Positions 16,020 to 21,675 of a stretch of 41,955 bases of DNA are shown in pieces (the first letter of the stretch is position 1; each line of letters starts with the position of its first letter). The stretch is from a virus. The notes under the pieces are model-generated. The model had not been told where the DNA came from, ran no database searches, and saw nothing but the letters and a program-made list of their open reading frames with translations. The translations under genes were made by a program, and so were the position numbers. Where the stretch lies: UHGV virus genome UHGV-0070165, one strand, 5' to 3'.

Positions 16020-17117
16020 TTAGAACTGGTAAACCAGACCTACAGCAACGATGTCATCAGTGCTTACACCGAGTGCTTTAGTGAAGTCATTTTTGTCAAG
16101 CAGGTTGATTTTGTAATCAACGAAAGTAGACATATTTTTGTTGAAGTAATAGGTTGCACCTACATCAACATATTTGACTAAGTCCTGATCGCCCCATACT
16201 CCAAGATCCTTACCTTTAGATTGCAGGTAAGCAACGGACGGACGCAGACCGAAATCGAACTGATATTGTGCAACAGCTTCGAAGTTTTGGGCTTTATTAG
16301 CAACGAAGTGATCAGCAAATACAGTCATATTCTGGGTTTCAGAATAGGTAGTGGCCAGGTAAATGTTGTTAGCGTCATATTTCAGACCTGCGGCCCAAAC
16401 TTCTGCATTTTTACCGGAAGCAAATACTTCAGGAAGAACTTTCCCTGCATTAACTTGAGTGTCGGTACGATCAGATTTCGCATAAGTTGCACCGATACCG
16501 AATCCTTCGTATTCATAGGTAGCAGAGAAACCGAAGCCATCACCGTTACCTTCAGTGTAGTTATCGAAATCGCTACGATCGTTTTTGCCTTGGTACTGAG
16601 CAGCAAAGTTCAGACCATCAACCAGACCAAAGAAGTCGTTGTTACGATAGGTTGCAACACCAGTTGCACGTTGAGTCATGAACACGTCGGTTTGAGTCCA
16701 AGTGTCACCACCGAATTCTGGCAGGACGTCAGTCCACGCACCGATGTCGTATGCTACACCGTAGTTACGGCCGTAATCGATGGAGCCGTAGTCACCGAAT
16801 TTCAGGCCAGCGAAGGCAAGACGGGTTTTATCTTTGGAGGAACCTTGAGATTCAGCGCGGTTGCCTTTGAATTCATATTCCCACTGACCGAAACCAGTCA
16901 GTTGATCGTTGATTTGGGTTTCACCTTTGAAGCCAAGACGGGCATAAGTAGTATCACCATCATCTGCATCATTAGAGGAGAAGTAGTGCTTAGCATTAAC
17001 TTTCCCGTACAGATCCAGCTTGTTACTGTCTTTATTATAAATTTCAGCTGCCTGAGCAGACATCGCCATCAGTACTGATGCAGCTACAGCAGAAATTGCC
17101 ACTGTTAATTTTTTCAT
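16020..17117 (-). CDS. nmpC: OmpC/OmpF-family general porin (NmpC/Lc-like), intact; start set at [11 protein letters not shown]
   Basis: Signal peptide ending SAQA; C-terminal F (…VGLVYQF) typical of outer-membrane beta-barrels; convergent to the late operon. Confidence 0.9.
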
Positions 17118-17544
17118 CGTGAGCCCTTTTTTTGAACTATTATTAAAAAATGATGTCACTGCGCGATAAATATTCATCTAATCAATGTGATTATTTCAAG
17201 ATGTAAGTTTTGGTTTCTCGTTTGATTTGTGAAGTAGATCTCTATTTTTATCTGAACTTTTTTCTATCGAATCCTATTCATGGCTCTTGGCTGAATAAAA
17301 ATAAATCTATTAGCCAATTTATATTAACGGCTGTTATTTATAAGTGCTCTATAATTTTAAGGTTCAATTTAAACCGGCTAAAAATAACACTGGAAATTAT
17401 TTGTTGGTTATTTGTTGAGATTTGCTTATGTATTTGTAGTGGTGTTTTCAATACTCGGTAGCATTCTCGCAAATATCATTTAGTGGTTTACGTACGTAAA
17501 AAATTGGTTATGCTGTTAAGAGTGGTTACTTCGTCACACAGCTT

Positions 17545-17689: not shown

Positions 17690-17905
17690 ATGAAATCCAT
17701 GGATAAGTTAACAACGGGTGTCGCCTATGGCACCTCAGCAGGTAGTGCCGGGTACTGGTTTTTACAGCTGCTCGATAAAGTCACGCCCTCACAGTGGGCA
17801 GCAATAGGTGTGCTGGGTAGCCTGGTATTTGGCCTGCTGACGTACCTGACAAACCTTTATTTCAAGATTAAAGAAGATAAGCGCAAGGCTGCGAGAGGTG
17901 AATAA
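17690..17905 (+). CDS. essD: Holin (phage-21 S-type, pinholin-like)
   Basis: 71 aa with two hydrophobic segments and a charged C-terminus ([13 protein letters not shown]); immediately precedes the endolysin. Confidence 0.85.
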
Positions 17906-18402
17906 TGCCTCCATCATTACGAAAAGCCGTTGCTGCTGCTATTGGTGGCGGAGCAATTGCTATAGCATCAGTGTTAATCACTGGCCCAAGTGGTAACGAT
18001 GGTCTGGAAGGTGTCAGCTACATACCATACAAAGATATTGTTGGTGTATGGACTGTATGTCACGGGCATACAGGAAAAGACATCATGCTCGGTAAAACGT
18101 ATACCAAAGCAGAATGCAAAGCACTCTTGAATAAAGACCTTGCCACTGTCGCCAGACAAATTAACCCGTACATCGAAGTCGATATACCGGAAACAACGCG
18201 CGGCGCTCTTTACTCATTCGTTTACAACGTGGGTGCTGGCAATTTCAGAACATCGACGCTTCTTCGCAAAATAAACCAGGGCGATATCAAAGGCGCATGT
18301 GATCAGCTACGTCGCTGGACATATGCTGGCGGTAAGCAATGGAAAGGTCTCATGACTCGTCGTGAGATTGAGCGTGAAATCTGTTTGTGGGGGAAACAAT
18401 GA
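17905..18402 (+). CDS. rrrD: Endolysin (lysozyme with N-terminal signal-anchor-release segment)
   Basis: 165 aa; hydrophobic Gly/Ala-rich N-terminus ([18 protein letters not shown]); lysozyme-like core. Confidence 0.9.
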
Positions 18403-18857
18403 GCAGAGTAACCGCGATTATCTCCGCTCTGGTTATCTGCATCATCGTCTGCCTGTCATGGGCTGTTAATCATTACCGTGATAACGCAATCGCCTACAAA
18501 GAGCAGCGCGATAACAAGGCCAGTGAACTGGAGAAGGCGAACGCCACCATCGCTGACATGCGGAAGCGTCAACGTGATGTAGCAGAACTCGACGCAAGAT
18601 ACACAAAGGAGCTTGCTGATGCTAACGCGACTATCGAAAGTCTCCGTGCTGATGTTTCTGCTGGTCGTAAGCGCCTGCAAGTCGCCGCCACCTGTGCAAA
18701 GTCAACGACCGGAGCCAGCGGCATGGGCGATGGAGAAAGCCCAGGACTTACAGCAGATGCTGAACTCAATTATTACCGTCTCCGAAGTGGAATCGACAAG
18801 ATAACCGCGCAGGTTAACTACCTGCAGGAATACATCAGGACGCAATGCCTGAAATAA
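18399..18857 (+). CDS. rzpD: Rz-like inner-membrane spanin
   Basis: N-terminal transmembrane segment, coiled-coil body; start set at MSRV after GGGGGAAAC. Confidence 0.8.
18613..18804 (+). CDS. rzoD: Rz1-like outer-membrane lipoprotein spanin, embedded in the +1 frame of Rz
   Basis: Lipobox LVVSAC, proline-rich ([13 protein letters not shown]); wholly nested within the Rz gene. Confidence 0.7.
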
Positions 18858-18888
18858 TTTTTTTGCAAATCACAAAGTCCATTTAATG

Positions 18889-18914
18889 AGCCTCGCGATG
18901 CGGGGCTTTTTTTA
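18889..18914 (+). terminator. Rho-independent terminator after the lysis cassette
   Basis: Imperfect hairpin AGCCTCGC-GAT-GCGGGGCT followed by TTTTTTT. Confidence 0.55.
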
Positions 18915-19062
18915 CATCTGAATTTCACAGCGCATCTCACGCGCATATTACATCACCCGAGCCTTTCAGAAAGTTGAGCCTGAGAACTGCCGTATATGGT
19001 GGCGACCATCTCGGGGCGGCTTTTCTGTGAGACAGGCTCACTTTCTAAAAGGTAAAGACGCT

Positions 19063-19551
19063 ATGAACCAATTAGAAGAAAAGCTTCAAAGAATGATTTC
19101 CTTATACAAGGAAGATAACTGCCAAAAAGTTCCTGAAAACATCGCAGAGTTAATGGAATTGGCAAGTGAATTTTCTGGCATGCTTAAGTCGTCAGGTGTT
19201 CGGTCAGCGTTCTTTGTTGAAATGCTGATGCACGGCGGACTTATGGCAACAATGAGACGTGTAATGGAAGACCAGAGAAAAGAACCTCCTCAGGTATACG
19301 TTTTGTCATCGAAGAAAACTGGGCTAACCAAAATTGGGTATTCATCCAACATTCCACAACGCATCAAATCGCTTGGCAACTCTGGACCAGACTGCTTGAA
19401 GCTTGAGTGCCTGATCCCTGGTGGAAGAGAAACTGAAAACATGCTTCATCGCAAATTTGCCGCAAAGAGAAAGCACGGTGAATGGTTCGCCCTGTCCAAG
19501 GATGACATTGAGGGATTGAAATCTGTAGCGATTACTTCTGATGGCTATTAA
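19063..19551 (+). CDS. T5orf172 (GIY-YIG-like) domain protein; start set at MNQLEEK
   Basis: C-terminal segment VYVLSSKKTGLTKIGYSSNIPQRIKSL...HRKFAAKRKHGEWFALSKDD fits the recalled T5orf172 pattern. Confidence 0.55.
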   Translation: MNQLEEKLQRMISLYKEDNCQKVPENIAELMELASEFSGMLKSSGVRSAFFVEMLMHGGLMATMRRVMEDQRKEPPQVYVLSSKKTGLTKIGYSSNIPQRIKSLGNSGPDCLKLECLIPGGRETENMLHRKFAAKRKHGEWFALSKDDIEGLKSVAITSDGY

Positions 19552-20065
19552 TGCTTGTTTAGAGCAATTTTCATAACAACTCTTCATTACAAAGCCCATT
19601 TACGGGTGGGCTTGATAATGAAACCGGAATTTATTCTGGGCCACCAGTTAACGGCAGTACCACGAAACAACCCAAGCCAGTAAGTGGGGAAATAACACTG
19701 GCAGCCACTGAAAGATGAAGCTCCTGCCTTAAGGCAAAAAAGATTCTTTGTGGTGGCGGACTGATGGAAAGACATCGGTTATTGCAGAGGCCATTCAATG
19801 AGTGGTCTCGACAATGGCTTATACCCTACACGGGATAACTTAACTGATATCCCTTTTAACGGATAAAGGTATTCAAGCCTGACACATCATGCGCTGTATC
19901 GTCGCCGTATTCCCGCATTAACCATGACCGTAGCCCGACGGGGAATTCCTTCTGCGTGAGTGTGCGGGAATAATCAAAAACGATGCACACCGGGGTTACC
20001 GGGTACACATATTTCATCATGCCAGCGAGTCCGGTTCTGGCGCGGAAGAAACCGGACGTTATGAT

Positions 20066-20476
20066 TTAGTGCGGAAATATTTGTGTAGTGTTCTGAATGT
20101 TCTCAGTAAATAGTAATGAATTATCAAAGGTATAGTAATACCTTTTGTTATCGTGGATATTTGTAATCCATCTGAAAACCCCTGCTGTAGCAAGATTTTT
20201 CCTGTATTCGTAAAATGATAACTCTCCTGATTTGAATCCTTTTAAGGTGGCTTCTATAAGGCATTTATTTTTTGAAAATCTTACATTTACAACCTTACCC
20301 TGTCCTTTTATTAAAACCGTATTATCGTTTTCAAGAACAAGATGAATATTCTCTGTGGCTAAATAGTAAATGTAATGTGAGACATTGTGACGTTTTAGTT
20401 CAGAATAAAACCAGTGATAGTTTAAATTATTTCGCACTTTATCGAATATTTGTTTAAAAATGGCAACCTGAGCCAT
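20066..20476 (-). CDS. Hypothetical protein (about 136 aa), AT-rich; start set at MAQVAIFKQ with GAAGGT Shine-Dalgarno
   Basis: ORF immediately downstream of the RHH gene on the same strand; no recognisable motif. Confidence 0.45.
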
Positions 20477-20533
20477 TGTAGTACCTTCCATGTGATATGA
20501 TGGGGCGTAGTCTGCACGATTATCTAAATTGCT

Positions 20534-20767
20534 TCAATCTGGTCTGACCTGTTTTCTGAGCAATTCAGTAATGTCACTCTTTTCTTTGTTTGCTTCAGGC
20601 GAAACTCTTTTTTCTGAGCACAGTCTCCGGCGGCAGGCTTCAATGACCCAGGCTGAGAAATTCCCAGACCCTTTTTGCTCAAGAGCGATGTTAATTTGTT
20701 CAATCATTTGGTTAGGAAAGCGGATGTTGCGGGTTGTTGTTCTGCGGGTTCTGTTCTTCGTTGACAT
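20534..20767 (-). CDS. ylcI: Ribbon-helix-helix (Arc/MetJ-like) DNA-binding protein, YlcI-like
   Basis: 77 aa; N-terminal basic stretch then RNIRFPNQMIEQINIALEQKGSGNFSAWVIEACRRRL, consistent with a beta-strand plus two helices. Confidence 0.55.
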   Translation of the reverse strand: MSTKNRTRRTTTRNIRFPNQMIEQINIALEQKGSGNFSAWVIEACRRRLCSEKRVSPEANKEKSDITELLRKQVRPD

Positions 20768-20966
20768 GAGGTTGTCCCGTATTCAGTGTCGCTGATTTGT
20801 ATTGTCTGAAGTTGTTTTTACGTTAAGTTGATGCAGATCAATTAATACGATACCTGCGTCATAATTGATTATTTGACGTGGTTTGATGGCGTAGATGCAC
20901 GTTGTGACATGCAGATGATAATTATTATCATTTTGCGGGTCCTTTCCGGTGATCCGACAGGTTACG

Positions 20967-20978
20967 GGGCGGCGACCT
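20967..20978. other. cos: cosN cohesive-end site (GGGCGGCGACCT) within the cos region (about 20940-21155)
   Basis: …GATCCGACAGGTTACG|GGGCGGCGACCTCGCGGGTTTTCGCTATTTATGAAAATTTTCCGG… matches the recalled lambda right-end/left-end junction; nu1 starts about 190 nt downstream. Confidence 0.85.
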
Positions 20979-21155
20979 CGCGGGTTTTCGCTATTTATGA
21001 AAATTTTCCGGTTTAAGGTGTTTCCGTTCTTCTTCGTCGTAACTTAATGTTTTTATTTAAAATACCCCCTGAAAAGAAAGGAAACGACAGGTGCTGAAAA
21101 CGGGCTTTTTGGCCTCTGTCGTTTCCTTTCTCTGTTTTTGTCCGTGGAATGAACA

Positions 21156-21675
21156 ATGGAAGTCAACAAAAAGCAGCTGGCTGACATTTTCGGTGCGAGT
21201 ATCCGTACCATTCAGAACTGGCAGGAACAGGGAATGCCCGTTCTGCGAGGCGGTGGCAAGGGTAATGAGGTGCTTTATGACTCTGCCGCCGTCATAAAAT
21301 GGTATGCCGAAAGGGATGCTGAAATTGAGAACGAAAAGCTGCGCCGGGAGGTTGAAGAACTGCGGCAGGCCAGCGAGGCAGATCTCCAGCCAGGAACTAT
21401 TGAGTACGAACGCCATCGACTTACGCGTGCGCAGGCCGACGCACAGGAACTGAAGAATGCCAGAGACTCCGCTGAAGTGGTGGAAACCGCATTCTGTACT
21501 TTCGTGTTGTCGCGGATCGCAGGTGAAATTGCCAGTATTCTCGACGGGCTCCCCCTGTCGGTGCAGCGGCGTTTTCCGGAACTGGAAAACCGACATGTTG
21601 ATTTCCTGAAACGGGATATCATCAAAGCCATGAACAAAGCAGCCGCGCTGGATGAACTGATACCGGGGTTGCTGA

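Follow-up and report, generated by a model that had tools for sequence, protein, structure and literature searches.

A small T5orf172-type nuclease gene as a possible mobile late-operon cassette in a DLP12-type lambdoid prophage

The window analysed here, the UHGV virus genome UHGV-0070165 (the whole stretch of 41,955 nucleotides), is a complete DLP12-type lambdoid prophage integrated at the tRNA-Arg of Escherichia coli. The gene under study is an intact open reading frame (ORF) of 162 codons at 19063-19551 on the plus strand, with an ATG start and a TAA stop, and it is the first gene after the Rz/Rz1 genes of the lysis cassette. Its product is proposed to be a small free-standing GIY-YIG endonuclease of the T5orf172 branch, and the gene a mobile single-gene late-operon cassette of lambda-like temperate phages, selfish or competitive in the manner of a homing endonuclease gene and tightly throttled. 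This proposal is tentative, and we hold it with somewhat less than even confidence. It is favoured because of the ORF-precise mobility of the gene, its sporadic distribution, the decayed alleles, an insertion between the tail genes V (tube) and G (chaperone) that has an empty-site relative, and the strict late-operon orientation.

The window was compared by blastn with phages carrying other genes at this position, namely SPN3UB (KilA-N), HK620 (KilA-N and ORF11CD3), and phiKp_30 (Rha and ORF11CD3). Homology stops at 19067/68 and resumes at 19575-19590, 24-39 nucleotides (nt) past the stop codon, and in essence the unit exchanged is the ORF. The ORF of the window is 99.8% identical to that of phage HK106, with 88% identity in the leader upstream of it, 90% in Rz and 95-96% in the right flank. 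Such a near-identical ORF in diverged flanks indicates probable ORF-level transfer into diverged backgrounds.

Among 5426 complete E. coli genomes the flanks of the slot were found in 1685, and the gene itself was present in 80-82 of them, the rest carrying mostly Rha and some KilA-N genes, which bears out the description in an earlier note on this DNA of a variable slot between Rz/Rz1 and cos. In an IMG/VR sample of 120 loci, the 113 complete slot ORFs were divided into 88 Rha-type, 12 KilA-N-type, 12 T5orf172-type and 1 other; the T5orf172-type ORFs comprised 10 intact copies, one frameshifted copy and one paralogue with a nonsense codon. Among the 82 E. coli copies no fewer than 3 are decayed, and the protein database contains several alleles with a deletion or frameshift. 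A frameshifted copy of the window allele, 95 amino acids (aa) long, was observed in locus L061. Locus L122, with the same slot and leader, carries a 32%-identical two-domain paralogue (P0017 type) with a premature stop inside the GEWF motif, giving 140 aa compared with 161 aa.

More distant relatives occupy other sites. Those with 80% (P0007) and 49% identity (P0014; 47-49% according to the alignment used) to the window protein are encoded after a different lysis cassette and before a different terminase, a 76%-identical relative (P0009) follows a lysis cassette and precedes an Endonuclease_NS gene, a 51%-identical relative (P0013) lies between genes V and G, and a 38%-identical relative (P0016) lies among tail genes. 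The V-G insertion, in locus L131, is accompanied by a homologous leader, and the uninterrupted V-G junction of the Providencia phage PSTCR8lys is the empty site that corresponds to it. The window gene and every copy examined were co-oriented with the late genes. A homologous copy of the terminator t1, which precedes the leader hairpin in the window, was found upstream of a distant relative in locus L006, and terminators flank the cassette in L006 and L131. A role as a packaging helper, by analogy with the HNH protein gp74 of HK97, whose counterpart is a neighbour of the gene in HK106, was considered and rejected, since the gene occurs with lambda-, HK97- and P22-type packaging modules. In a Klebsiella variicola prophage (GCA_029476385.4, locus L133, 4001-5187), a 76%-identical homologue is followed by a gene for a 232-aa Endonuclease_NS protein (PF01223) with overlapping stop and start codons; the window has no such two-nuclease pair behind its lysis cassette.

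Databases already list the gene, always without a function. RefSeq annotates the same coordinates in the chromosome of E. coli strain Combat11I9, which is 100% identical to the window over the stretch tested, as WP_016245257, "GIY-YIG nuclease family protein". Several E. coli chromosomes carry the sequence with 100% identity. HK106 gp64 (YP_007151734), which differs by 1 aa and has the same post-Rz position, is the same gene, and the protein matched PHROG 4284 (listed as function unknown) over its full length with an E-value of 9e-88. The genes downstream differ, with an HK97-type HNH endonuclease and packaging module in HK106, and DUF1398, YlcI and a lambda-type nu1/A in the window. No functional study of HK106 gp64, or of a GIY-YIG gene after a lysis cassette, was found in the literature. 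On comparative grounds translation starts at the ATG (19063) and not at the GTG that precedes it (19027), because the leader through the start codon and the first few bases, up to the end of homology, is common to unrelated slot genes; a Shine-Dalgarno sequence, AAAGG, lies about 10 nt upstream of this ATG. An exact copy of the lambda cosN sequence is found 1.4 kb downstream of the gene (20967). The space from the gene to cos also contains DUF1398 (20066-20491) and YlcI/DUF3950 (20534-20767), both leftward, and the gene is therefore not the sole occupant of the Rz/Rz1-cos interval.

The earlier note had placed a T5orf172 domain at the C-terminus, and this was confirmed with Pfam, where MUG113 (PF13455) matched aa 90-151 with an E-value of 6e-15 (56 bits, cut-off 22.3) and T5orf172 (PF10544) matched aa 78-150 with an E-value of 2.8e-10 (41 bits, cut-off 20), and where the generic GIY-YIG model (PF01541) gave an E-value of 0.19 only. 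In the AlphaFold model of the whole protein (predicted local distance difference test, pLDDT, 87.6), the C-terminal domain has the order beta-beta-alpha-beta-alpha-beta-alpha, which includes the beta-beta-alpha-beta-alpha core of the GIY-YIG fold, and when the domain was modelled by itself its best PDB matches were GIY-YIG nucleases. When the whole model was used for fold searching, helical bundles dominated the matches, and a profile built from the family alignment found no relative among PDB sequences. Both the T5orf172 domain and a nuclease fold, the lack of which the earlier note had named as counter-evidence, are present.

When distant relatives were compared, Y79, K90-I91-G92, R100, E125, H129 and E140-W141-F142 were invariant, and the positions equivalent to the catalytic GIY-YIG residues (Y79, K90, R100, E125 and E140), whose conservation the earlier note had proposed to check, did not vary in 51 diverse sequences. 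The spacings of 11 residues from Y79 to K90 and 10 residues from K90 to R100 are those of Y6, Y17 and R27 in I-TevI, and these residues were aligned, weakly, by hhalign. By topology and spacing only, E125 may correspond to the catalytic E75 of I-TevI, and E140 to the position of N90. A lysine in place of the second tyrosine and the missing His/Tyr of helix 1 are typical of T5orf172 domains, as described for the ICP1 nuclease Odn (PMC8263062). From these residues the C-terminal domain, which is basic (isoelectric point, pI, about 9.4), looks catalytically competent. In the T5orf172 nuclease Odn the substitution E180A abolishes cleavage (PMC8263062), and in SNIPE the equivalent predicted catalytic glutamate of the GIY-YIG nuclease domain, which is not called T5orf172 there, is required for defence, as seen with E414A (PMC13190303). 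Two variants of the domain were also observed. P0002, the representative of a 114-member Salmonella/E. coli cluster, carries E140G (GEWF to GGWF) together with D110Y and may be an inactive variant, and P0030 (220 aa), from the representative library, has a Phage_pRha domain (E-value 2e-14) fused to a closely related T5orf172 domain, so that two kinds of slot occupant are linked at the domain level.

The N-terminal region, described earlier as about 80 uncharacterised residues, indeed had no match in Pfam or NCBIfam over its roughly 72-75 aa and no PDB match by sequence, and NCBIfam gave no match for the protein as a whole. In the AlphaFold model, residues 1-72 form a bundle of three helices (3-20, 23-43 and 49-71). 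No Cys/His zinc motif was found in this domain, and the protein showed no RepA_N match at E-values up to 10, no transmembrane segment and no DUF4041 match. The domain has a net charge of -2 and a pI of 5.4, is acidic in 15 of 17 homologues, and is poorly conserved, G45 alone being nearly invariant. A profile of the domain searched against 5.8 billion proteins recovered only copies linked to T5orf172 or truncated copies of the same gene, and other fusions gave no clue. Because it is acidic, poorly conserved and found only in these settings, the domain is not expected to bind DNA, and its charge and fold suggest oligomerisation, partner binding or self-restraint instead. An exhaustive profile search of the T5orf172 superfamily returned 38,241 cluster representatives, three of them at an E-value of 1e-30 or below; about 12 of the representatives reach into the N-terminal domain, and the two-domain architecture is therefore a small family. 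Its members down to 23-35% identity retain both domains and every motif residue.

Upstream of the gene, a leader of about 200 nt that includes the strong terminator t1, also annotated as a rho-independent terminator in HK106, is common to the slot occupants, and about 150 nt after t1 are conserved among all of them. The leader folds with a minimum free energy (MFE) of -67 kcal/mol (z -3.1) into a long stem in which 18962-18987 pairs with approximately 19021-19052, and the Shine-Dalgarno AAAGG (19048-19052) is held in the 3' arm. An alignment of nine leaders, among them diverged examples (Klebsiella, the V-G insertion, the P0014 loci), gave an RNAalifold consensus of 25 pairs with 89.5% of cells paired. 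Compensatory double changes were observed at 11 of the 25 pairs, compared with 2.6 +/- 1.4 in shuffles (none of 500 reached this number) and 0-6 in slid controls, and at the apex of the hairpin ATGGT/ACCAT in the window is replaced in a compensatory way by AGGT/ACCT in HK106. G-U pairs are found on the plus strand only, and the structure is therefore in the mRNA sense. Covariation thus supports the leader structure, and sequestration of the Shine-Dalgarno in it would be expected to affect translation. As far as our searches show, neither this leader nor the protein architecture of acidic bundle plus T5orf172 has been described.

A scan of 18300-21300 against Rfam at E-values up to 1 gave no family for the leader and only spurious miRNA matches at 21070-21136. 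These arise on both strands from a near-perfect inverted repeat at this position, between cosN and nu1 (21156), which is probably the hairpin of the lambda cosB/nu1 leader region and an ordinary feature. No sigma-70 promoter was found in a consensus scan upstream of the window gene or upstream of the P0014 homologue. A promoter-like element embedded in the leader, TTGAGC-N15-TATGGT, picked out by eye, is weak and missing from the other haplotypes of the leader, and it was rejected as evidence for expression in the lysogen. The known control of P22/phi80 rha by integration host factor (IHF) prompted a search for the IHF consensus (WATCAANNNNTTR) in the leader; a single site with one mismatch, over the start codon, is at chance level and was also discarded.

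In the sequence of events that we consider, transcription would start at the Q-antiterminated late promoter and read through t1 and the terminator-like hairpin, as suggested by the anatomy of the region, and given this Q-dependent read-through, expression would be confined to lytic growth. The leader stem would occlude the Shine-Dalgarno, so that a potentially harmful protein would be translated at a low level or only conditionally. The C-terminal domain would cut DNA with a GIY-YIG-type site made up of Y79, K90, R100, E125 and E140, as judged from Odn and SNIPE, and the acidic bundle may act in oligomerisation, in binding a partner or in self-restraint. The DNA of a co-resident related phage or prophage with a different slot allele might then be cleaved and repaired across the short conserved flanks, which would account both for replacement that is precise to the ORF and for an ORF that is near-identical although its flanks have diverged.

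This scheme is close to what has been described for other T5orf172 genes; these are putative homing endonuclease genes, are found clustered near terminase and structural genes and mark the boundaries of recombination (Barth et al. 2023, PMC10448857). Like the genes described there from ICP1, T5-like and other phages, the window gene encodes a free-standing protein with a C-terminal T5orf172 domain, lies by terminase or structural genes, is sporadic, has decayed alleles and sits at an exchange boundary. It differs from them in having a 72-aa acidic bundle instead of a CapR/DUF723/DUF4397 Zn-finger, in being much smaller, and in belonging to temperate lambdoid phages. Odn (Gp88 of ICP1; PMC8263062) is likewise phage-encoded, with a C-terminal T5orf172 domain that has the conserved Arg and Glu and lacks the classical His/Tyr of helix 1; Odn, however, finds its target through an N-terminal RepA_N domain that was copied from the satellite it attacks, and the window protein has no such domain. 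The Rha and KilA-N plus ORF11CD3 genes, including P22 rha (orf201), share with the window gene the post-Rz/Rz1 slot, the terminator, the leader hairpin and the context of the start codon and, in some but not all phages, the right flank; they are also late-operon accessory genes that can harm if misregulated, although the proteins are unrelated. P22 rha, in the same type of slot, harms phage growth when it is misregulated or its IHF control is lost (PMC4936722), and by analogy this behaviour would fit a slot for products that need throttling. A moron would be inserted between otherwise adjacent genes and have its own promoter and terminator; such an insertion was seen at V-G, terminators flank the gene in L006 and L131, and the consensus scan found no promoter.

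Several observations weigh against a mobile, homing-like late nuclease. Sporadic presence, an empty-site counterpart at V-G, siting beside essential conserved genes and decayed copies, all of them marks of homing genes, were found, but no recognisable sequence-specific DNA-binding domain is fused to the nuclease. Zn-finger domains occur in about 87% of the T5orf172 homing endonuclease genes in the survey of Barth et al. (PMC10448857), and a protein with an acidic N-terminal domain and no recognisable DNA-binding domain has no obvious means of recognising a long target. At least 79 of the 82 E. coli copies are intact, which is atypical of a decaying homing endonuclease gene, and most of the 82 lie in one conserved DLP12-type late block, so that their near identity may partly reflect vertical or block inheritance and not independent mobility. 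In the records sampled there was no empty site at the post-lysis slot, where the gene replaces other genes, and ordinary mosaic recombination at conserved linker sequences could account for such replacement. The absence of a promoter was judged from a simple consensus scan, which a weak or non-canonical promoter could escape.

The earlier note had suggested that accessory genes at this position are often exclusion or defence functions. In this explanation a low level of the nuclease in the lysogen would cut incoming phage DNA, with the N-terminal bundle sensing a phage protein or restraining the nuclease until infection. Nuclease effectors are common in defence, most copies of the gene are intact, including those in four heavily deleted DLP12 remnants without the Q late-antiterminator region, the fast-evolving acidic domain would fit a sensor or inhibitor, and PADLOC gave one weak match, to PDC-S57 (E-value 7e-6), the sole match in the defence library. 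Yet that match covers the nuclease core only (74 aa, aa 73-146, to positions 3-83 of a 212-position model) in a different architecture, since in PDC-S57 the nuclease is N-terminal and is followed by about 130 positions unmatched by the window protein. SNIPE (a membrane nuclease of DUF4041 plus GIY-YIG; PMC13190303) has a GIY-YIG-type core in common with the window protein, which lacks a transmembrane segment and DUF4041, and the setting of the window gene is a late operon rather than a defence island. The lack of a promoter in the scan, the two terminator-type hairpins and the Shine-Dalgarno-occluding stem upstream, the sharing of the leader with Rha and KilA-N genes, and the relatives placed between tail genes in late orientation all argue against defence. 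The genes that alternate in the slot are Rha and KilA-N late-operon genes and not known defence genes. A defence function is thus not supported and is considered unlikely. A late weapon of the Odn kind, aimed through a protein partner of the N-terminal domain at satellites such as phage-inducible chromosomal islands (PICIs) or at resident mobile elements, or else a counter-defence factor, would suit the late-operon position and an N-terminal domain that is variable and seen in no other architecture. There is a precedent in ICP1 Odn and its coliphage analogues, where T5orf172 nucleases have been domesticated for use against satellites (PMC8263062, PMC10448857). No RepA_N or other recognisable targeting domain and no satellite-derived sequence similarity were found; this idea is speculative and seems still more doubtful than defence.

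A non-catalytic, regulatory DNA-interacting protein of the "Bro network", analogous to Rha and KilA-N proteins and comparable to CapR, is suggested by the common slot and leader, by the Rha-T5orf172 fusion P0030 among the close domain relatives and by the precedent of CapR as a domesticated T5orf172-related repressor (PMC10448857). However, the gene product has no domain in common with Rha, KilA-N or ORF11CD3, and the invariance of all catalytic-equivalent positions in the 51 sequences argues for retained catalysis, which makes this role improbable. We give an equally small chance to a neutral passenger, a leftover cassette without a current role, carried along by the mosaic recombination that is usual among lambdoid phages. 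Exchange at short conserved boundary sequences and the decayed copies would be expected of a passenger, but not the retention of both domains and all motif residues in relatives of 23-35% identity, the intact state of nearly all E. coli copies, or the late-operon position kept across different lysis and packaging modules.

In E. coli BE2-5 (locus L136, NZ_CP032986, 3317542-3328030), a heavily deleted prophage at the DLP12 locus has kept the T5orf172 gene, DUF1398 and YlcI intact. It also contains an IS3 element, Rz/Rz1 in truncated form and what is left of terminase and J, and its annotated stretch lacks the Q/late-promoter region. The deletion junction was found in 4 genomes only, and retention in cryptic remnants was rejected as a sign of selection with so few genomes.

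The features of the region are listed in Table 1. The stretch of about 500 nt 3' of the gene (19552-20065) has no annotated gene, and its first approximately 230 nt are also conserved where phages carry a different gene in the slot; bor, the gene found here in lambda, is missing. A terminator-like site on the minus strand (19740-19721) is probably the end of the leftward DUF1398/YlcI transcript. Upstream of the holin gene, between it and the Q antiterminator, an OmpC/NmpC-type porin gene lies on the opposite strand (16020-17177, minus). It is intact, with 385 aa in the mechanical ORF list and 1098 nt (about 365 aa) in the RefSeq call, and is the usual nmpC-type lysogenic-conversion gene of DLP12.

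Table 1. Positions of the T5orf172-type gene, its predicted domains and the surrounding elements in the window.
Feature	Position	Strand	Basis or remark
Lysis cassette	17690..18857	+	ORF list; RefSeq names essD, rrrD and lysis protein in the identical chromosome
Holin	17690-17905	+	ORF list
Lysozyme	17905-18402	+	ORF list
Rz	18387-18857	+	ORF list
Embedded Rz1 lipoprotein	18613-18804	+	ORF list
Intrinsic terminator t1, directly after Rz	18888..18915	+	Terminator scan; 9-bp G+C-rich stem, then seven T
Conserved leader hairpin	18962..19052	+	MFE fold, RNAalifold consensus, covariation
Terminator-like apex of leader hairpin, GCCG...CGGC then TTTTCT	18989..19026	+	Sequence reading; helix 3 of the consensus structure
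Gene for two-domain 162-aa protein, HK106 gp64 family, PHROG 4284	19063..19551	+	
N-terminal domain, aa 1-72	19063..19278	+	Acidic three-helix bundle, without family match
T5orf172/MUG113 nuclease domain, aa ~76-155	19288..19527	+	
Conserved non-coding right flank, common to Rha and KilA-N slot versions	19575..19800		blastn against HK106, SPN3UB, HK620, phiKp_30

A wider and bolder proposal can be put beside the mobile late nuclease, and it is regarded as unlikely. The post-lysis slot of lambdoid and P22-like phages might be a dedicated "socket" for interchangeable, potentially toxic late genes (Rha, KilA-N and T5orf172), all controlled by a single portable cis-regulatory RNA, the Shine-Dalgarno-sequestering hairpin with its terminator, which would move together with its gene into other positions in late operons. 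The nuclease would be aimed through a protein partner of the fast-evolving N-terminal bundle, and not through a DNA-binding domain, as a late-phase weapon against co-resident phages, satellites or host systems.

On present evidence the gene is a poor defence candidate. The leader shared by Rha, KilA-N and T5orf172 genes, which lies outside Rfam, is a candidate explanation for how harmful late accessory genes are restrained in lambdoid phages, and, being a short homology "linker" as well, it could promote the exchange of cassettes with ORF precision. If the gene does encode an active late nuclease that biases inheritance or attacks co-residents, the account of T5orf172 nucleases in homing and competition, which so far comes from the lytic vibriophage ICP1 and from T5-like phages, would extend to temperate lambdoid phages, with a minimal 162-aa example that lacks a classical DNA-binding domain.

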